Positions 21,442 through 63,135 of a stretch of DNA of 64,000 bases are shown one piece after another. The position numbers and the translations under genes were made by a program. Origin of the DNA: a virus; the IMG/VR virus record IMGVR_UViG_3300028374_000796; one strand, 5' to 3'. Positions within the stretch are counted from its first letter, which is position 1. Each line of letters opens with the position of its first letter. Under the pieces are notes generated by a model. That model ran no database searches and had not been told where the DNA came from. It saw only the letters and a list, made by a program, of their open reading frames with translations.

Positions 21442-23400
21442 TCAACTTTTCTCCATCATAGCAAAAAGCTCATCTTCTCCAATGATGGGAGTCTCATACT
21501 TATGAGCTTTTTTAGCCTTGGATGAAGTAGAAGTCTTATCATTACATACTAAATAGGTCAAGCTCTGTGAGACACTTTTCTTCACATCCCCACCATTATC
21601 CTTGATCATCTTCTCGATGACCTTACGAGGCTTGTCCAGCTTTCCAGTAATACAAAAAGACATACCTTTCAAAGGACCTGCATTGGAAACGATGCTCACA
21701 TAGTTTAGCAAATCTTCAATCATGTCTTCCCGATCTTTTAATCCTTGAACCAGTGAAGAGGCTTTCCCTTCCCCAACTCCTCGGGCGGCAGAAATTTGAA
21801 GTACCGAAGAAGTTCGGATTTGGTCCAATGTATCCTGACCCGATTTCATGACCTTCTTAATGGTACTATTTGAACAGATTGGAATATTGAGTCCTCCCAA
21901 AAACTGATCCAAAGTGACCTCAGTTCTGGAATGCAAAAGGTCCAATAGCTTATTGGCAGTTTTCAACCCTACAATAGCTCCTCCCGTATTTTGAAGATTA
22001 GCAATGTCATCAGGATCTAATCGGTAGAGATCTGCAATCGTAGTAACCAAACCTTCTTCTACCAGAGCGTTTAAGACGAACTCTCCCCAGTCCAAAAGGT
22101 CAAGGGAAGCTACCCATGCCTTTAGAGTGCCGGATACCCTAGAAGGGCATTCAGGAGACTCACATGCGAGATATTTACCGTCTACTACCAACGTAGAAGA
22201 ACAGGACGGACAGTGTGTAGGGATATCAAGGATCCCTTCCGAATTTTTCTTAATGACTTCTTGAACTCTGGGGATCACGTCATTAGCCCTTTTTACCAGA
22301 ATATCATCTCCAATATTCAACCCTAATTGTTGGATATAAGAAACATTGTACAAAGAAGCTCTTTGCACTTCAGCGCCTACCAACGTTACCAGGTCAAAAA
22401 CAGCGACAGGGGTTACTCTTCCCGTATTACCCACTTGCCAGATTACTTCTTGGAGAGTAGATGGTGCCACTTCTGCGCTAAATTTAAGAGCGACAGATCC
22501 GTGTGGACGTCGGTTTCGATCCCCTGCCCGATTAAAAACCTTTTGGTCGTGATATCGAATGACCAGACCATCAATTTCATAGAACAATTCATCCCTGTGA
22601 TGGTCTTCATAGGCGACATAGACCTCTCCAATTTCTTCCATAGACAAAGGACCTCCATGTCCTGGAGTCATTAGATCACAAGAATCAATGAAGATAAACT
22701 TTTCGGTTTGATCTTCAAAGTTGTAACCGTCAATGAAAGCTTCGTAGACATAGACCGAAAGATATTCGCACCTTTTTGCTTTTTCACGAGACTCTACTCT
22801 GGCCAGACCTGATGCAGCATTTCGGGGATTAGAATAATCTTCAAAATGAACATCAAACCAGTCGTGCGTTAGGACGATCTCTCCCCGAAAAGTGCCGGTA
22901 ATGGGTTTAGACTGTGGATTAGGGGGTTCAATATGACGGGGAACTCCACGCATCAAAACTACGTTGGCTATGATATCTTCTCCAAGGTGGCCGTCTCCCC
23001 TAGTAACCGCAGAAACCAATTTACCTTTTTCATATTGAAGAGCAATAGAAATTCCATCCATTTTCTCGGACCAGAAAAGGACTTTTTCTTCGGAAAGATC
23101 TGAGGCTTGTGATCTTAGAGCAGGGCCGCTCGATTCCAACCATTTGCTCATATCCTCTAGTGAGTTAGCCTTGTTTAGCGAACCCATAGGAATAACATGA
23201 GGAACTTTTTTCCACTTGGTCTTAGTGTCTGCTTGCGCTCCGACATTAGCGAGGATTGAGGAATCGGGATGAAGGTCTCGGAGTTCATCTTCTAGAGCAT
23301 CGAAAGCTTGGTCACTGATCTCAGGATCATCGTTATAGTACGCTTCTCGATGGTACTCAATCAGTTGCTCTAGCTCTTCAATTCTATTTTGATCACTCAT
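21442..23400 (-). CDS. ligA: NAD+-dependent DNA ligase
   Basis: YYNDDPEISDQAFD, EKMDG, TRGDG, RGE, NPRNAASG, IDGLV, VALKF, zinc finger CPSC...C...C, HhH, BRCT (FCITG). Confidence 0.95.
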   Translation of the reverse strand: MSDQNRIEELEQLIEYHREAYYNDDPEISDQAFDALEDELRDLHPDSSILANVGAQADTKTKWKKVPHVIPMGSLNKANSLEDMSKWLESSGPALRSQASDLSEEKVLFWSEKMDGISIALQYEKGKLVSAVTRGDGHLGEDIIANVVLMRGVPRHIEPPNPQSKPITGTFRGEIVLTHDWFDVHFEDYSNPRNAASGLARVESREKAKRCEYLSVYVYEAFIDGYNFEDQTEKFIFIDSCDLMTPGHGGPLSMEEIGEVYVAYEDHHRDELFYEIDGLVIRYHDQKVFNRAGDRNRRPHGSVALKFSAEVAPSTLQEVIWQVGNTGRVTPVAVFDLVTLVGAEVQRASLYNVSYIQQLGLNIGDDILVKRANDVIPRVQEVIKKNSEGILDIPTHCPSCSSTLVVDGKYLACESPECPSRVSGTLKAWVASLDLLDWGEFVLNALVEEGLVTTIADLYRLDPDDIANLQNTGGAIVGLKTANKLLDLLHSRTEVTLDQFLGGLNIPICSNSTIKKVMKSGQDTLDQIRTSSVLQISAARGVGEGKASSLVQGLKDREDMIEDLLNYVSIVSNAGPLKGMSFCITGKLDKPRKVIEKMIKDNGGDVKKSVSQSLTYLVCNDKTSTSSKAKKAHKYETPIIGEDELFAMMEKS

Positions 23401-45937: not shown

Positions 45938-46018
45938 ATAGTTCTTGTTTTAGAATGTAGTTGTTGCTTTCACCTGAAATAACAACTGACTAACCAAACA
46001 TAATTCAAGAGGACTAAA

Positions 46019-46621
46019 ATGAGTAAAGTATCCCAAGAAAAAGTTGATACCCTCCTTGCAGATATGAAGGAAAAGCTCCCCGACTATAAAATTATTTATA
46101 AAGATGAACCCTTACCAAAAGTATGGTACGTCCGATTTATAATGTTTATGGCATCTCTCTGGGGATTTTTCAATCGAGGTTTCCGAAAAGCCTGGAATAC
46201 TAGAATTTCCAATGGGATTGGAGACTATATTATATTCCCTTCCCGAGAAACGCACGGCGACTTGAGAGATTTTAAAACCTACATGATTCTCAGGCATGAA
46301 TATGTTCACCTATTGGATTCTAAAAAATACGGTCTTTGGTTCCAACTGACTTATGGTTTATTGCCTTTACCTATTTTATTGTCGGGCAGAGCACACTGGG
46401 AATTAAGGGGATACTCTCAAAACTTGATTGTTCTTCATGAGGAAGGTAGAACGATTTCTGATAAATATCTAGATAGTGTTGCATCCCAATTCTGGAAACC
46501 TCTTTATTTCTGGATGTATCCCTTTCCAGGCTCCATTAAGAAAAAGCTCCGTAAAATACGAGACGGCATAGAAGCCGGGGAGATTAAAGGTTTCAATCCT
46601 GACATTAAACTCTGGGATTGA
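46019..46621 (+). CDS. HExxH zinc-peptidase-like protein
   Basis: LRHEYVHL followed by WELRGY (third ligand E); aromatic/hydrophobic stretches. Confidence 0.7.
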   Translation: MSKVSQEKVDTLLADMKEKLPDYKIIYKDEPLPKVWYVRFIMFMASLWGFFNRGFRKAWNTRISNGIGDYIIFPSRETHGDLRDFKTYMILRHEYVHLLDSKKYGLWFQLTYGLLPLPILLSGRAHWELRGYSQNLIVLHEEGRTISDKYLDSVASQFWKPLYFWMYPFPGSIKKKLRKIRDGIEAGEIKGFNPDIKLWD

Positions 46622-46671
46622 ACCCCTACATTCAACCCATTGGATCCGTGCCTCCAAGGCTATTACTTCTT

Positions 46672-47049
46672 TTAGAGGGCTTTTCTTTCCTCAGATTCTT
46701 TCATGGATTCTTGAATTGGAAGTCGCGATACTTTTTCGGCGGTAAGGTATTCGCTGGCTTCCTTTTGAGAAAGAATTACCAAACAAATAGGTTTAGGACG
46801 TACCCATTTTTCCCATTTATTGAGGATCGTTTTAAACAGTTCTTGTAATTCTTCCAGATTATCGGAAGTTTCATAGAAATTATATTTGTAGGGAAACCAG
46901 GTAGGGAAATCCCCATTCCTTTTCTTAATCCTAGCCAGTGCATATTTCTTTCCCTTAAAGTCACTTTCTTTGACCTCCATATAAAGGGATTCTTTTTGCT
47001 GATCCTCGGTAGTTATGTCAACCTTAAGTGTTTTGATTAAATCAAACAT
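46672..47049 (-). CDS. Hypothetical protein
   Basis: 125 aa with AAGG RBS. Confidence 0.65.
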   Translation of the reverse strand: MFDLIKTLKVDITTEDQQKESLYMEVKESDFKGKKYALARIKKRNGDFPTWFPYKYNFYETSDNLEELQELFKTILNKWEKWVRPKPICLVILSQKEASEYLTAEKVSRLPIQESMKESEERKAL

Positions 47050-47173
47050 GGTGGTCGCCTTCTCTCAATGGTCAAAATTCAAAAGGAACTCTATAGGAAT
47101 CTAGAGTTAAGGTCAAGCTTGCTTCTCACTCTAGAACCTGATACATTATGAAAAGGCATGTAACTTTCTATAA

Positions 47174-47470
47174 ATGAGAAGTAGTATTATGACGACAAGC
47201 AGAGATCCGATAAAAGAATGCTTTAACGATAGCGCTGAATTTGGTCTTTTCAAAGATGGAGATCTGATTGTAAGTTCCAGTGATCCTGAAGAATTAGAAA
47301 TGTATATCAGTGTCCGCAGTAAAATGCCTTTTCCTGTTCCAACCTTTACCATAGAGGAATTAGAAACTTCTGAAAATGCGGTAGAAGAAGACTCTCAGGA
47401 ACCTGATGTAGAAAAAGAAAAGGCTATCCTAGTAGATCCTGAGGAGGATAAGGAAGAAGATAGTACTTGA
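47174..47470 (+). CDS. Small acidic hypothetical protein
   Basis: 98 aa; E/D-rich C-terminal half. Confidence 0.6.
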   Translation: MRSSIMTTSRDPIKECFNDSAEFGLFKDGDLIVSSSDPEELEMYISVRSKMPFPVPTFTIEELETSENAVEEDSQEPDVEKEKAILVDPEEDKEEDST

Positions 47471-47495
47471 CATAGGAATAAATATCCTCTAATCT
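47467..47495 (+). promoter_or_regulatory. Sigma70-like promoter of the tmRNA-like RNA
   Basis: TTGACA-17 nt-TAATCT, ending 17 nt upstream of the GGGGGTG 5' end. Confidence 0.7.
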
Positions 47496-47512
47496 TGGTT
47501 GGAAGTGACAAA

Positions 47513-47641
47513 GGGGGTGTACTGGTTTCGACTTGGATGTTGAGGCTAATGTAGCATTCAGGAGTTGATCGAACGGCTCCTTAAAAAATCGATCCGTTTA
47601 TAATTGCATCAATCTTCGTTTCCTCCCTACCCGGGAGGATG
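47513..47641 (+). ncRNA. ssrA: tmRNA 5' portion (acceptor 5' strand, D-loop mimic, pseudoknot 1, resume codon); no 3' tRNA-like half
   Basis: GGGGGTGTACTGGTTTCGAC 5' end; pk1 stems AGGAG/CTCCT and GATCGA/TCGATC; ATAATT-GCA resume context at 47606; then a TCCTCCC/GGGAGGA hairpin. Confidence 0.8.
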
Positions 47642-47644
47642 ATT

Positions 47645-49339
47645 CTACCTGTTCAAAAACCAGTTTATAATAAACCAGACCTCATCCAACCCTAGGATGG
47701 GGTCTTTTATTAGGGGCCTATTATACCATGCTATTTGAAAATAAGAACTATCCCGACACTCTCCTATCTGTACGGGACCGTCTTTTTGTATTTCAAAGGT
47801 TCTTTCCACCTCCTCGGGTGGTGTTCCAAACTCCGTAACGACTTCACCACCTCCTTGAAGCGTCTTATACAGATCGATATCTGTAACTTCATCGGGAGAG
47901 GAGGAATACACCTCATTTATGATAGCGTCTAGGATAAACTCTCCTCCCACAGTCTGCCCTCTCAGTAGGATAGAAAAAGCATCGTTTCCGTCAAAAGCCT
48001 CCTTAAAAATAGCAGTACGGTGTTGGGATGTGCATCCATTTGTAGTGATTACAAGGTCTTTTTTGGACCGATCAGTTGGGGAAGTTCGGATCCTCATTAC
48101 AAGTCCGTTATTCCCTGCCTTGAAGATCTTGCAATTGCCTTTTATCCTACCTGATATAAATATTGTATATTCTGAATTTGCTAAGAGAGACCCTAAAGGA
48201 GCAGTAGAACCAATCCCATCTTTTGGATATTGTAGTGCAGGGCCTCCTCCATAATAATCTTTTCTATACTTGGGCCTCAACTCCAAATCTACATGAGAAG
48301 AAAAATCTCTATTGCTATCTGAATTGGAAGCTATTCCTTTCCATGTGGGAACTCGATCGCAGTCGTCAAAATTTTCCTCAGAAGGGTTTGTGGCGGTGTG
48401 CCAAGAGATAACTCCCAGAAGATCTCCAGGATCGTGAGTAGGAATAGCTGTACTCGACGACAAGCTCTTTGATGTCTGCGCACCTGTTCTGATAACTCTT
48501 CCTACAGACTCCGTATCTGAAAGGCTCTGAAGAGTTGAGGAAGACCGAAATTTACCCTCCAAATTAGATGCTATTTGTCTTAGTTCATATTGATATGGCT
48601 TTTTCCTGAGAATTAACATATCTGCAATGTCAGCATCAAGCAATCCATGCCTATCGTGATACCCTAATTGGACCAGACCCGCAGTATTTAATTTTAAGGA
48701 AGACCCTGATACCAAATAAGGGGCATGAGCTTTTAAATCAAAATAAGCCTTTTCATTTAAATTAGGACCAAACGAAAATGAATAGAGTTTCCATTCTCCA
48801 ACCTGAGCCTCAGTTCGGTAGCGGGCACTTCCTTCCCCGGACCTTAATTGTAATTCTACCATATCTCCATTTAGAAAAAGATCTGCGGACGCCGTCCCCA
48901 CTCGAAAAAGAGTTCCTATCCTTATTGGAATCCTAAGTTGATCATTTATGGGATAGGGACGAATACGTACTAGAGCCAGAACTGTTATACTAGTAGTGGA
49001 ATTCTTAACGTGCCTAGCATCTATAATTTCATTGGAGGATAAAAAGTCACCCCTTTCAGAATCGAATTCTAAATAGGACAATGCTTTATGATAATCTCGA
49101 AGAAGCCGTGGACCGGGATTTATGAAGGATGTTAGAGCTAAAGGACCTTCAAAAATTTCGGAATCTATATGTCCGAAATTCTTTTCTACCTCATTTACAT
49201 TATATCGTGCTAGCATATTTCCTGAATATGTGGTAGATATAGTAGTAGAAATAGATCTTGTGGAGACTGAAACAACCGATCCAAAGTTTTCAGAAGAGGA
49301 GATCGAGATTAATTGGGATTTACCTGTAACATTTGCCAT
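47645..49339 (-). CDS. Protein with probable LamG/concanavalin-like beta-sandwich domains (possible virion protein)
   Basis: Two beta-rich repeats ending ...LGY...IADMLIL and ...IGE...IAWYNRPL; family similarity is moderate. Confidence 0.65.
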   Translation of the reverse strand: MANVTGKSQLISISSSENFGSVVSVSTRSISTTISTTYSGNMLARYNVNEVEKNFGHIDSEIFEGPLALTSFINPGPRLLRDYHKALSYLEFDSERGDFLSSNEIIDARHVKNSTTSITVLALVRIRPYPINDQLRIPIRIGTLFRVGTASADLFLNGDMVELQLRSGEGSARYRTEAQVGEWKLYSFSFGPNLNEKAYFDLKAHAPYLVSGSSLKLNTAGLVQLGYHDRHGLLDADIADMLILRKKPYQYELRQIASNLEGKFRSSSTLQSLSDTESVGRVIRTGAQTSKSLSSSTAIPTHDPGDLLGVISWHTATNPSEENFDDCDRVPTWKGIASNSDSNRDFSSHVDLELRPKYRKDYYGGGPALQYPKDGIGSTAPLGSLLANSEYTIFISGRIKGNCKIFKAGNNGLVMRIRTSPTDRSKKDLVITTNGCTSQHRTAIFKEAFDGNDAFSILLRGQTVGGEFILDAIINEVYSSSPDEVTDIDLYKTLQGGGEVVTEFGTPPEEVERTFEIQKDGPVQIGECRDSSYFQIAWYNRPLIKDPILGLDEVWFIINWFLNR

Positions 49340-49453
49340 GATGAAAGATCCTTATAAAATGACTTGCAAATGATAAAATTCTAGGATATGGTACCAGAAT
49401 CAGAATAATACTTCCTTTACTTATAGGAAGAGACCTGGAATTAAATAATAACG

Positions 49454-50767
49454 TTGGAGAAGTTAATGAAGTGGAGTATTGCTCTTAGTCAGTATTTGGG
49501 ATCGAAAGCTGTGGTAGACAAGATCAATCTGCCTCAGAAGTATTATAATATGGTCGATTCCTCTCTAAAGGAGTTGGAAAAATGGTCCACTACATTCAAA
49601 GGTCTGGAGGTCGATAAACCACACACTTATTTCCAGACAGGATTAAATGTGATGAGGAAGATCTCCGTTCCCGAGGAAGAGATCAAAGTCCATACTAAAA
49701 GTCTAATTGTCCGGTATGCAGAGAAAAAAGACTTTGTACGTCTGGAAAACTGCAATACTTTTTTATACTATCAGGATATCATCCGGCGTAATTATAAAAA
49801 AGCGGTCCCTATTATTGAGGGAGACAAGGGAGTTTTCCAGGTAATCCCCATGGACAGCGGAGAAAATTTCCATTTCTATGAACTGAATAAGAAAGACTCC
49901 GAAATGGAATACCTTCCTTTTCTTCCAGATATGACAAAAAAACCCAACCGAAGGCTCGCAGTAGAAAAGTCACTTGCCTCTTTATATTGGGAAAATAGAC
50001 AGATCCTCAAACTTGATTTGAGAAATGATGTCATTGAATTCGATGATGTAGACCACATTGATAGGAAATATGAAGGGGAACTCACCAGCGTTTCGGGTAA
50101 TCTGCTTAGGTGTAGAGACAATGGGATACGGAGGGCTATGCTGTTCCAGGGACCTCCTGGAACGGGCAAGAGTACGCTGGTAGGAAACATTGCAGAGGTA
50201 ATTTCAAAAAGAACAGTGATTCTTACGCATTCCTTTATGGAATGGGTTAATGAGCACCAATGGGATACTCTTCTACGGATTCTTCAACCCGAGATGATTA
50301 TCGTTGATGACATTGATCGCATTTCAAGGGTTATGGAACGGAAGTTGTCTCTTTTCGAGGATCATTACTGTAAAGTTCCTTTCATTCTTATGACTTCGAA
50401 TCATTATAATTTGCTGCCCGATGCTTTTAAACGGCCCGGAAGAATTGATGAGATCATTGAAATGCAAAATCCGGTTCGGAAAATTAGATACGAGGTTATC
50501 CGTTCGATCGCAATGCAGGAGAATATGGAAGTTCCAGATAATCGAATGTCTATTCTTGATGAAATTCACGAAGAATATGCAGGTGCTTATATCGTAGAGC
50601 TTTTGCGTAGAGTAAAAGCTTATGGGTGGGACTATCAAATCCCCGCATATGACTTAACTTTCCGGGAATTAAAAGAAGAAACCCGCGAAAAATGGAATCG
50701 GGGTCCAACAACGGTAAAGATCGATTCGGATGATGACGAACTAGAGGGAGTTGAGGAGACAGTATGA
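49454..50767 (+). CDS. AAA+ ATPase (classic clade, BCS1/FtsH-like), paralog 1
   Basis: TTG start; GPPGTGKS, IIVDDID, MTSN, RPGRID. Confidence 0.88.
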   Translation: MEKLMKWSIALSQYLGSKAVVDKINLPQKYYNMVDSSLKELEKWSTTFKGLEVDKPHTYFQTGLNVMRKISVPEEEIKVHTKSLIVRYAEKKDFVRLENCNTFLYYQDIIRRNYKKAVPIIEGDKGVFQVIPMDSGENFHFYELNKKDSEMEYLPFLPDMTKKPNRRLAVEKSLASLYWENRQILKLDLRNDVIEFDDVDHIDRKYEGELTSVSGNLLRCRDNGIRRAMLFQGPPGTGKSTLVGNIAEVISKRTVILTHSFMEWVNEHQWDTLLRILQPEMIIVDDIDRISRVMERKLSLFEDHYCKVPFILMTSNHYNLLPDAFKRPGRIDEIIEMQNPVRKIRYEVIRSIAMQENMEVPDNRMSILDEIHEEYAGAYIVELLRRVKAYGWDYQIPAYDLTFRELKEETREKWNRGPTTVKIDSDDDELEGVEETV

Positions 50768-60536: not shown

Positions 60537-60578
60537 TTTGATTCCTAGGGTGATAGAAAGTGATCCTTAACAACTTCA

Positions 60579-60610
60579 CCCTATATACCCTGGAGTCCTA
60601 GAAATTACAA
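60579..60610 (-). promoter_or_regulatory. CCAGGG-TATATA family promoter, copy C
   Basis: TTGTAA-17 nt-TATATA-GGG. Confidence 0.75.
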
Positions 60611-60761
60611 ATCTTTTTTAAATAATTCACATTTCCGGGAATTTATTATATAGAATCAAACGCTTCGATCAATGACCGTCCAAATATGGACCCGTCATAT
60701 GAATATATAACTTGCTTACAAAACGTAAGCCAACACGAAACTACACTAGTAGGTCTTTAGA

Positions 60762-63062
60762 ATGGCTGTAAAGAATACCACACCATCCTCAGTATCATCC
60801 TCCAAAACAACCCTAAGTTCAAATTACGATTTGAAAACCCTTCTCTCATTCGAGACAAAAGAGGAAGGTAGGCACCTTCAAAAATTGATCGAAAAGAATC
60901 CAGGGCTGGTTCAACATAAATATTTTGGGGATGAACCTAATAATGCGGGAAATATCCATTTAAATGGAAAACCCGAAGCAAGTGCAGGGGAACGAATCAC
61001 GAACGGATGTGATGCTAAAATTGAAGAAGCCATCTATAACGGACTGGCTGCTCAGTATGACAACCCTTTTGATATTGGAGAAGCAGTTTTCGACGCCAAT
61101 AAAACAGGGGTGTCCGTAGCATCTAGGCCAGTACACCTTCGATTGAAAGGAAAGTACGATAAAAAAGCGAAGTCAGTGACGATGGATGTGCGGGATTATG
61201 GAATAGGAATTCCAGTCAAACGCATGTTGAAAACTATTCTTAATTCCAAAAGTGGAACCAAATCAAGCGATCCTCGTTATATTGGCAGGTATGGTCATGG
61301 AGGGTCTACTACTTTCTCACATTCAAATTTCTCGATGGTAGTAAGCCGTCATATTAATTCTAAAAAGGTGGGAGTAGCTTTTGTCAAGTATTGCGCCCCC
61401 GGAGATATGAATCCCATTACGGGAGAGGAACAACGAAGGAGCGGGACATATCTAACATTAGTGGACCCTAATACGGGAGAGCCTTTCGTGTTCAACGCTT
61501 TTGATACCAATGGCAATGAGATCTTCAAGCCCGGCACGCATATTCGACATTTTGAATATGAGATGGATCCGAGGGACCTTGTTTTTTACAGCAAACCCAC
61601 CCGTCAAAAGTCTTCTCTTTATAAAACGATGAGGACGATGTTCCCTAACCCTCCAATTCCTTTTGCGGTTTTTGACGACCGCATGGGAGCAAAAGGGACT
61701 CAGCTTCATTATACGGTTTACGGATCCTTTCGTTCCCTTAGTAGTAATGTAAAAAAGAAGGTCGAATATGACAATTCCGCTACTGTTCCAGTTGGAAAGG
61801 GTAATATCAAACTCTACTGGTTTATTATCGACGAAGATTCCGTGCGTGATAATTATATCAATAATTTCGTCAACTATGGGTATTCGGGTAACGTATTTTT
61901 GAGCGGTCAGACCATCGAAACATTGCCAGCACAGATCGTTAGAGATTCTGGGATTCCCTTTTTGGAAAAAGGAATCGTTCTCTTTGCAGATCTCGATGGT
62001 CTCGACGATCGGACCAAAGATCGCGTGATGACTGCGACCAGAGAAAGTCTAAATACTAACTACCGAAATCTCATTCATGAACATCTGGTATCGCATCTCA
62101 AAGAAGATGATAGAGTGCAAGAAATCCATCAAGAAAGACGAAATAATCTAACTTCTACGCCTTCCAATCAGGATACCATCAAGCAGTTGAAGAAATATTT
62201 TGAGAACTACCTTACGGGTTCTGGAAATAGTAGAACTCCAAATCCTAATCCCAAACCTAAAGTTTCTCCTACCCCTATTGCGGTAGCAAATAGCTATATA
62301 AAGGTTATTTCCCCTAGACGGGCTTTGTATCCGGGCCAGAAATTTTCCATTAGGTTTCAGACCGATATCGATAATTCAAGGTTCGATCAGAATTTCTTTG
62401 AAATTACTGCTAAGGACCCTCAGGTTCTTGAGGTATCCAACTGGTCGATCAGTGATAACCAGAATGCAACACAGGGCCATAAAACACTGGCAGGTCTACA
62501 GGTTAACCCCGGCGCACAGGTAGGGGATTTCTCCACCATTACTTTGAAAGTGAAGCTACCTAACCAACAAGAAGTGGAAGTGGAAATAGCTTGTGCCATC
62601 GTGGAAAAACCGGATCCTAAGAAAACCAGTCAAAAGGTTCCGGATTTCGATGTGAAATGGGTTAATAAGAATCAAACAGACCTGATTAGAAATCTGGACC
62701 TTTTTGACGAGGATGGAAATGTCATGGAAGATAAGGTAGGTCACGTCGAGAGAGGTGGAGACGGTTCAATTACCGTTTACTTGGCGAGGTTCAACGAAGA
62801 AGTAGTTGCGGCGCTCAAAGCGATCGAAGATAATGGTACTGCTAAAACCCGATATGATCATTACCAGGAGTTTTTCCTGTCAGGATATTTTGACTTTCAG
62901 GTAGCAGCAGCTGCATCTGCATTTCTTCTCAAAGATGACGGGCAGATTCAAACTCCAAGCCCCAAAGATACCCCAGATACCGAATTGGAAACCGTAATGA
63001 AAAGCGCTGCTAGGAGCGCAGTAGCTTACTGGAAAGTAAATCTTCTAAAAATTGCAAATTAA
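60762..63062 (+). CDS. GHKL (Hsp90/MORC-type) ATPase, paralog 2
   Basis: GERITNGCDA, RDYGIG, IGRYGHGGST; same overall architecture as 53797-56061. Confidence 0.78.
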   Translation: MAVKNTTPSSVSSSKTTLSSNYDLKTLLSFETKEEGRHLQKLIEKNPGLVQHKYFGDEPNNAGNIHLNGKPEASAGERITNGCDAKIEEAIYNGLAAQYDNPFDIGEAVFDANKTGVSVASRPVHLRLKGKYDKKAKSVTMDVRDYGIGIPVKRMLKTILNSKSGTKSSDPRYIGRYGHGGSTTFSHSNFSMVVSRHINSKKVGVAFVKYCAPGDMNPITGEEQRRSGTYLTLVDPNTGEPFVFNAFDTNGNEIFKPGTHIRHFEYEMDPRDLVFYSKPTRQKSSLYKTMRTMFPNPPIPFAVFDDRMGAKGTQLHYTVYGSFRSLSSNVKKKVEYDNSATVPVGKGNIKLYWFIIDEDSVRDNYINNFVNYGYSGNVFLSGQTIETLPAQIVRDSGIPFLEKGIVLFADLDGLDDRTKDRVMTATRESLNTNYRNLIHEHLVSHLKEDDRVQEIHQERRNNLTSTPSNQDTIKQLKKYFENYLTGSGNSRTPNPNPKPKVSPTPIAVANSYIKVISPRRALYPGQKFSIRFQTDIDNSRFDQNFFEITAKDPQVLEVSNWSISDNQNATQGHKTLAGLQVNPGAQVGDFSTITLKVKLPNQQEVEVEIACAIVEKPDPKKTSQKVPDFDVKWVNKNQTDLIRNLDLFDEDGNVMEDKVGHVERGGDGSITVYLARFNEEVVAALKAIEDNGTAKTRYDHYQEFFLSGYFDFQVAAAASAFLLKDDGQIQTPSPKDTPDTELETVMKSAARSAVAYWKVNLLKIAN

Positions 63063-63064
63063 AT

Positions 63065-63096
63065 TTGTAATTTAGGAAAGACCAGGGTATATAGGG
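63065..63096 (+). promoter_or_regulatory. CCAGGG-TATATA family promoter, copy D
   Basis: TTGTAA-17 nt-TATATA-GGG directly after the GHKL stop. Confidence 0.75.
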
Positions 63097-63135
63097 TGAG
63101 TCGAGGGGAAACCCTCTTAATACTGGCAAGGGATA

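Follow-up and report, generated by a model that had tools for sequence, protein, structure and literature searches.

An apparent tmRNA gene remnant adjoining a solitary type I-E CRISPR repeat in a phage genome

Introduction

Phage transfer-messenger RNA (tmRNA) genes, viral solitary repeats of CRISPR (clustered regularly interspaced short palindromic repeat) kind, and CRISPR mini-arrays are each already known. The locus described here appears to combine them. It lies in a stretch of 64,000 nt, one strand of the IMG/VR virus record IMGVR_UViG_3300028374_000796 (hereafter the window), in which an element that resembles the first third of a phage tmRNA gene is followed by a hairpin with the features of a CRISPR repeat. 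Such a tmRNA-repeat fusion is apparently new, and a full-text literature search returned no report of a CRISPR repeat attached to a tmRNA gene that is broken at its resume codon. An earlier reading of the locus, made from the letters alone (the sequence-only reading), had described a promoter-driven half tmRNA followed by a GC hairpin, and had proposed a trans-split tmRNA, a decoy RNA or a truncated relic.

Viral solitary repeat units (SRU) and RNA anti-CRISPRs (Racr) share with this locus a single full-length repeat outside an array, in a virus, with a promoter-like site upstream (Camara-Wilpert et al. 2023, PMC10651486). The definition of an SRU includes that no second repeat lies within 100 bp (PMC10651486). 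Unlike in Racrs, a Cascade and Cas6e that match the repeat are encoded by the phage clade of the window itself. Here 105 nt of tmRNA sequence come before the repeat, a coding region directly adjoins it, and inhibition is only putative. CRISPR mini-arrays and CRISPR RNA (crRNA)-like regulatory RNAs (Shmakov et al. 2023, 10.1101/2023.03.03.530964; CreA/CreR) are made of a canonical repeat, about 32 nt and a hairpin at the position of the second repeat, an arrangement also seen in the window. In contrast to mini-arrays, however, the second element of the window is weakly repeat-like and lies in conserved coding sequence, and no partial promoter target was found in the window. A related contig (L040; L numbers denote the loci compared) does carry a clear mini-array, directly upstream of cas7.

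Integration of islands or prophages duplicates or replaces the 3' end of ssrA. An attP-type fragment was rejected as the origin of the element, since integrative elements carry the 3' end of ssrA and not its promoter-proximal 5' end. The ssrA fragments left by integration, as in the ssrA archipelago of A. baumannii with its CRISPR-Cas island (10.1101/2023.09.20.558655), resemble the window in placing a partial tmRNA beside mobile or defence DNA, and ssrA is a hotspot of rearrangement (10.1101/2023.09.20.558655). The window differs from them in that the 5' end and a possible promoter are kept, the break falls at the resume codon, the partner is a single CRISPR repeat, and the carrier is a lytic-type giant phage.

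tmRNA homology up to the resume codon

The element starts with the 20-mer GGGGGTGTACTGGTTTCGAC, identical to the tmRNA 5' end of 36 phage contigs in IMG/VR, and the 5' end recognized by the sequence-only reading was thus correct (Table 1). All tmRNA-carrying relatives have full-length genes: the tmRNA was complete wherever the DNA of these 36 loci was long enough, two of them ending at the locus edge. They include one-piece genes (438-482 nt) as well as permuted genes with the acceptor piece upstream, and those tested with Rfam scored 104-145 bits. The closest family (IMG/VR loci L002, L004, L006, L011, L013, L017, L022, L023, L029 and L031) could be aligned colinearly with the window as far as the resume codon. 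Given this colinearity and the covariation of pseudoknot 1 (PK1), the element is truly homologous to the 5' third of a phage tmRNA gene.

PK1 was fully paired in the window (11 of 11 pairs), as had been claimed. In the alignment of the window with 11 full-length phage tmRNAs, 96% of the pairs were formed and 10 of the 11 pairs changed on both sides, values that none of 500 shuffles and no slid register reached.

Table 1. Positions of the features discussed, in window coordinates
Feature	Position	Strand	Basis or remark
Sigma-70-like site	47467-47495	+	TTGACA, 17 nt, TAATCT; predicted promoter
tmRNA acceptor-stem 5' strand and D-loop-like segment, GGGGGTGTACTGGTTTCGAC	47513-47532	+	20-mer identity; high Rfam alignment posterior probability
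P2 helix, 5' strand, without 3' partner	47533-47559	+	colinear with 11 full-length phage tmRNAs
Pseudoknot 1	47560-47594	+	S1 47560-47564/47577-47581; S2 47567-47572/47589-47594
Resume-codon context ATAATT-GCA	47600-47608	+	last stretch with tmRNA homology
9-nt joint TCAATCTTC	47609-47617	+	between tmRNA part and CRISPR repeat
Complete 29-nt type I-E CRISPR repeat GTTTCCTCCCTACCCGGGAGGATGATTCT	47618-47646	+ (sense)	identity to array repeats
Convergent 564-aa gene P0001	47645-49339	-	stop TAG formed by the last two bases of the repeat and the next base
32-nt stretch in spacer position	47647-47678	+	also encodes the last 10-11 codons of P0001
11-bp hairpin and TTTTATT, terminator-like	47677-47712	+	-18.1 kcal/mol, z -4.4; 32 nt past the repeat

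The Rfam tmRNA model RF00023 matched 47513-47814 with 24 bits at a permissive threshold (E-value 9e-6 for the whole window and all families), below its gathering score of 47 bits. The 5' 105 nt alone (47513-47617) gave 32.7 bits as a 3'-truncated match, while the equivalent 5' part of two intact phage tmRNAs gave 67 and 43 bits. Only model positions 1-95 aligned well, encompassing features expected of RF00023, namely the 5' acceptor strand, the D-loop-like segment (GGTTTCGAC), the P2 5' strand and PK1, followed by AUAAUUGCA; the remainder of the alignment was filler across the antisense strand of a protein gene. The end of homology at the resume codon (GCA, 47606-47608, 93 nt from the 5' end) was therefore placed correctly by the sequence-only reading, as was its ATAATT context. 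Beyond GCA, nothing was similar to the conserved tag regions of relatives, whose tags have 33-35 codons and end in LLAA, LMAA or SLAA. The frame opened by GCA, ASIFVSSLPGRMILPVQKPVYNKPDLIQP*, is 29 aa long, runs through the CRISPR repeat and has no Ala-rich end, which bears out the claim that no tag-like frame follows: the hydrophobic, Ala-rich degron before the stop that belongs to RF00023 tags is lacking. The joint TCAATCTTC may represent the beginning of the tag frame that was lost.

One-piece phage tmRNAs (RF00023) share with the window the first 20 nt, the P2 5' strand, PK1 and the A-rich stretch with GCA. Beyond these they have another three pseudoknot regions, the 3' strand of P2, a T-arm and CACCTCC(ACCA), none of which the window has past position 96. 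In the one-piece relatives the motif GATCTTTGAAATTT directly precedes the mature 5' end; the window lacks it. Permuted two-piece tmRNAs (RF04321; ARAGORN tmRNA* in L005, L008 and L012) resemble the window in that the acceptor 5' strand opens the coding piece. Their acceptor piece is encoded within the same gene, 100-280 nt upstream; in the window none was found.

Among the intact phage tmRNAs, four (L013, L022, L023 and L029) were missed by ARAGORN, although Rfam gave 104-145 bits. Where ARAGORN did detect this tmRNA family, the tags were given as the last 9-24 residues, compared to the 33-35 codons counted from the resume codon.

A type I-E CRISPR repeat in place of the tmRNA remainder

The hairpin downstream of the tmRNA part is, judging by its match to arrays elsewhere, a complete CRISPR repeat of the type I-E kind of the phage clade. 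The sequence-only reading had recognized a 7-bp GC hairpin; the stem was indeed present (47621-47627 paired with 47633-47639, 5-nt loop, -12.8 kcal/mol), and its identity had been missed. The stem is followed by the tail (A)TGATTCT. As in type I-E repeats, the stem-loop occupies the 3' two-thirds and ends in an 8-nt tail, which becomes the 5' handle of the crRNA.

A search of JGI metagenome contigs with the repeat core CCTCCCTACCCGGGAGGA, which did not return the window's own contig, yielded arrays of 3-7 copies with a period of 61 nt (29-nt repeat and 32-nt spacers). These arrays sit in lake-phage contigs (L039-L060) and have a common leader. The repeat of the window was identical to the array repeats at 28 of 28 positions, and at 29 of 29 to a T-ending variant in L045; its orientation is that in which the arrays are transcribed (leader to GTTTCC). 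In L040, an array and the mini-array stand directly upstream of cas7-cas6e-cas5-cse1-cse2, with Pfam matches for Cas7 (PF09344, 2e-70), Cas6e (PF08798, 2e-22), Cas5 (PF09704, 3e-27), Cse1 (PF09481, 3e-40) and Cse2 (PF09485, 3e-11). The identical repeat of the related contigs therefore displays the 29-nt units, the 61-nt period and the adjoining cse1, cse2, cas7, cas5 and cas6e genes of a type I-E system.

Sequencing run X3 included contigs in which position 47645 leads back, across 31 or 33 unrelated letters, to 47616 or 47618. The depth of these array-like contigs (4.8) was that of the phage (4.4-5.1), and rejoining at phage depth is thus the signature of a CRISPR array, with 47618-47645 as the repeat.

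The window itself holds a single copy, a full-length match to a genuine repeat with no second full repeat and no partial one above 70% within 100 bp, and the element qualifies as a viral solitary type I-E repeat unit. A search with the repeat returned nothing from IMG/VR. Among 185,579 species-representative genomes, no array with the repeat core was found, and the single matches in nine unrelated genomes are chance ones. The spacers of the related arrays gave zero matches to the window and to the tmRNA loci.

A solitary repeat in a virus could act as a Racr-type decoy, in which a promoter-driven one-repeat RNA would titrate the Cas6e and Cas7 proteins of a type I-E system in the host that has this same repeat, with the tmRNA head as the Cas7-coated body. 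The locus, a solitary viral repeat with a promoter-like site upstream, agrees with how such units are defined operationally (PMC10651486), and Racrs work via Cas6 and Cas7 binding sequence upstream of the repeat (PMC10651486). Such a role is nevertheless improbable. The phage clade has its own Cascade with the same repeat, so that the decoy would poison the phage's own system; no host array with this core turned up in the species representatives, only the single chance matches; and the repeat lies 122 nt past the -10 box, behind a long, structured RNA.

Search for the 3' half of the tmRNA

The claim that the acceptor half is missing from the window was upheld by ARAGORN, Rfam, sequence patterns, a custom scan and blastn, all of which came back empty. 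No T-arm followed by an acceptor 3' strand able to pair with GGGGGTG at the 5' end (G3-U included) and then by A(CCA) was present in the 64 kb, nor was a T-arm with acceptor strand found there by searches with T-loop and acceptor sequence patterns. Rfam gave no 3' half over all 64 kb at E<=10, and at gathering thresholds Rfam and ARAGORN reported tRNA-Trp alone in the window. The custom scan (5-bp arm, 7-nt loop, then a 7-mer pairing with GGGGGUG) gave no acceptor piece in the 64 kb; its sole ACCA-ended match, at 21585, was rejected, being antisense inside a gene and without a T-loop. A CACCTCC at 47807-47813 has no preceding T-arm, and its next base is T. No 3' half was obtained by blastn of the full sequences of ten relatives, 3' halves included, against the window. 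In a duplex-energy scan for a P2 partner over about 8,500 windows, the best match (61081-61150, z about -3.8) was within noise. Nothing tRNA-like occurs in the interval (49340-49453) that separates the convergent gene from the following one, and no smpB was found among the open reading frames (ORFs) of the window that were tested.

Alanylation, EF-Tu binding and SmpB binding of a tmRNA all require a folded tRNA-like domain, with T-arm and acceptor 3' strand. The element cannot be a working tmRNA on its own, because an RNA lacking the T-arm and the 3' strands of both P2 and the acceptor stem forms no tRNA-like domain, takes no alanine charge and does not enter the ribosome. As the defining features of the family were looked for and found lacking, it is not a functional member of the tmRNA family.

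A split two-piece tmRNA, whose coding piece, possibly matured by Cas6e, would pair with an acceptor piece elsewhere in the genome, was the first option of the sequence-only reading. The RNA does share its starting point with the coding pieces of permuted tmRNAs, the frame reaches its stop codon in the loop of the 47677-47705 hairpin, and the acceptor searches covered the 64-kb window, which is about a third of the genome. This option found no support in the 64 kb and has no precedent, and we regard it as highly unlikely. Five methods found no acceptor piece in the window, and the Rfam model of permuted tmRNAs (RF04321, tmRNA_permuted) gave 16.3 bits against a gathering score of 47. ARAGORN, which covers permuted forms, detected none in the window. 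The DNA upstream of the tmRNA part is a 98-aa ORF and not an acceptor piece, and in the 29-aa frame, which takes in the CRISPR repeat, the LAA-type end that all relatives have is missing. To our knowledge, two-piece tmRNAs all derive from one permuted gene with the acceptor piece upstream, and separately encoded pieces are without precedent.

With PK1, the resume context and the 5' 20-mer intact, the tmRNA head could also serve as a decoy of trans-translation, perhaps stabilised by Cas6e, that would bind SmpB, ribosomes or host tmRNA precursors and block rescue; a protein-bound 3' hairpin would be expected to stabilise a small RNA. Against this putative function, for which we see little likelihood, SmpB and EF-Tu recognise a tRNA-like domain whose T-arm and acceptor 3' strand were not found in the window, the tested ORFs of the window include no SmpB gene, and the design was seen in zero relatives. 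Least probable of all is a role of Cas6e in which it would mature the coding piece of a split tmRNA with its acceptor elsewhere, or make a stable, stop-less tmRNA mimic that traps host rescue. If true, the CRISPR endoribonuclease of a phage would serve as the RNA-maturation enzyme of a split ribosome-rescue RNA, and the acceptor piece would lie elsewhere in the genome, perhaps beside another solitary repeat.

Breakpoint-like flanks of the repeat

Both flanks of the repeat look like breakpoints, as judged from where homology ends on either side. On the left, tmRNA homology stops 0-9 nt before the repeat (9 nt when counted from the GCA at 47608). On the right, the repeat runs into the end of the convergent gene P0001, and the canonical repeat ending (C instead of T) would turn the TAG stop of this gene into TGG. 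Only one non-identical homologue of P0001 was found among 5.8 billion proteins (P0003, 70% identity). It is conserved with P0001 up to ...NR and then continues with YSE*; P0001 therefore lost its last 3 codons at the joint, and this shortening, together with the end of tmRNA homology near the repeat, is what gives both sides the look of breakpoints.

The P0001 protein had no Pfam or PHROG match. Its look-alikes by language model and structure were Laminin_G_3/concanavalin-like phage proteins, which may be taken as a lead only.

The terminator-like hairpin downstream of the 32-nt stretch lies inside the conserved C-terminal coding sequence of P0001 (KDPILGLDEVW). The succession of last canonical repeat, 32 nt and terminator hairpin recurs in the arrays of L045 and L060. 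The hairpin is U-rich on the flanks of both strands and stands about 10 codons before the P0001 stop. If it is a bidirectional terminator, the P0001 mRNA would consequently end before its stop codon.

The junctions were also recovered from other sequencing data. Runs with the stretch are lake and salt-lake metagenomes, and contigs of four lake runs were compared with window positions 46000-49500. They were at least 99% identical to the window, and no population variation could therefore be read at the locus. A contig from run X3 covering 47512-48286 and one from run X8 covering 47467-47617 showed zero differences from the window. Since independent contigs from X3 and X8 cross both junctions, an assembly chimera was rejected and the junctions are real.

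A proposed tmRNA gene remnant fused to a CRISPR repeat

The explanation that we favour, with middling confidence, is that a tmRNA gene remnant became joined to a solitary repeat, or to a mini-array with one spacer, that Cas6e would cleave. As to the order of events, we infer that an ancestral full-length phage tmRNA gene stood convergent with P0001, and that a rearrangement involving CRISPR repeats took out about 350 nt of it, leaving one repeat between the broken ends. The collapse of a small array, recombination between spacer and target, or insertion of a solitary repeat are candidate routes. A truncated relic had been among the options of the sequence-only reading, and truncation is closest to the evidence; the agent would be a rearrangement with a CRISPR repeat and not the simple arrival of the convergent gene, which was itself shortened by its last 3 codons.

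The repeat-bearing RNA would be made from the old tmRNA promoter, or via read-through from upstream genes. Phage Cas6e would then bind to the hairpin of the repeat and cleave it at the stem's 3' base, the cut being expected after about position 47638 (a site predicted by analogy with type I-E systems). The 5' product, about 126 nt long, would consist of the tmRNA head with a Cas6e-bound 3' hairpin. The 3' product would have the shape of a crRNA, with the 8-nt handle, a 32-nt guide and the terminator hairpin replacing the second repeat. Any such guide might target sibling phages that have the intact gene end lacking the repeat, as in virus-borne mini-arrays of inter-viral conflict.

Several observations weigh against this scheme. 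The predicted promoter, whose -35 box TTGACA overlaps the stop codon of the upstream 98-aa ORF (47174-47470) and which ends 17 nt upstream of the tmRNA 5' end, is present as the sequence-only reading stated but is not above chance, 0.54 such sites (<=1 mismatch) being expected per window. Its -10 box, TAATCT, agrees at only 3 of 6 positions, and a promoter scan did not report the site. The promoter region bears at most a loose resemblance to the CRISPR leader (TTGACA ... GTGAC). The intact PK1 and the unchanged 20-nt 5' end could mean that selection acts on the tmRNA part itself. As to the 3' product, the similarity of the 47677-47712 hairpin to the repeat is borderline (score 9, the 95th percentile of random windows). 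No target of the 32-nt stretch was found in IMG/VR when every sixth base was left free, and its first 15 nt had no other site in the window with fewer than 3 mismatches. A spacer partly complementary to a promoter adjacent to a protospacer-adjacent motif, as in CreA/CreR-type RNAs, was likewise not seen within the window. The crRNA-like shape may be coincidence, because the 32 nt and the hairpin lie in coding sequence conserved at 70%. Finally, three neighbouring proteins led to no close relative in IMG/VR, the 36-mer of PK1 was not found there, and blastn with the window gave zero close relatives in the INPHARED phage collection.

A dead relic, in which the tmRNA gene was destroyed, the repeat is a rearrangement scar, and nothing is expressed or used, would agree with the chance-level promoter, the breakpoint-like flanks on both sides of the repeat and the ordinary coding sequence downstream of it. 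The 5' part also scores less than in intact relatives (32.7 versus 43-67 bits), and the earlier argument that an intact PK1 speaks against long decay is weak in this light, as compensated changes may predate the break. We consider this outcome rather unlikely, however, given that the repeat is identical to array repeats at 28 of 28 positions and in sense orientation, that all 11 PK1 pairs are kept and the first 20 nt have not changed, that a hairpin follows exactly 32 nt past the repeat as in L045 and L060, and that solitary repeats of relatives stand in functional-looking places, e.g., between cistrons just before a ribosome-binding site.

A remnant fused to a repeat would show that repeats of a phage CRISPR system take part in genome rearrangement. 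Where a repeat comes to lie beside ordinary DNA, a new 32-nt "guide" may arise without Cas1-Cas2 taking part. For annotation, the locus serves as a warning, ARAGORN and Rfam at default thresholds being silent on the tmRNA part.

Solitary repeats and other features of the phage clade

Solitary repeats are common in the related contigs (L039, L041/L049, L051 and L057). One of them (L049:2754-2782, identical in L041) lies between two ORFs of the same strand, 11 nt past the stop of a 95-aa ORF and directly before the AAGGAACAAA-ATG of a 274-aa ORF. This position suggests a site at which Cas6e processes an operon mRNA. Considered together with the repeat of the window, such intercistronic solitary repeats suggest that the clade may use Cas6e sites as general RNA-processing signals.

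The mini-array of L040 (2532-2625; the same in L055 from 8104) is composed of a canonical repeat, a short spacer and a degenerate second repeat with a 16-nt loop. Its place before cas7 makes it a candidate for a cas-regulating crRNA-like RNA.

Repeats were also found near unusual tRNA genes. L057 carries, at 1630-1758 on the minus strand, a tRNA gene enlarged by an insertion of about 58 nt (41 bits with the Rfam tRNA model) that ARAGORN misses. About 40 nt past this tRNA, one repeat is present in L057 and three repeats in L045, which is from another sample or strain. In L039 and L051, tRNAs with insertions and tRNA clusters occur near solitary repeats.

The gene content of the window is consistent with a large phage, with CobS/CobT-like AAA and VWA proteins (PHROG matches), a sigma factor, paired AAA+ ATPases and the one tRNA-Trp. 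Promoter-like inverted repeats of about 40 nt flank a GHKL ATPase gene in the window (60577-60618 and 63058-63098). They recur at 88% identity in related CRISPR-bearing contigs (L041:3757-3798 and L041:4693-4733, and L049), and their recurrence suggests a clade-wide regulatory motif.

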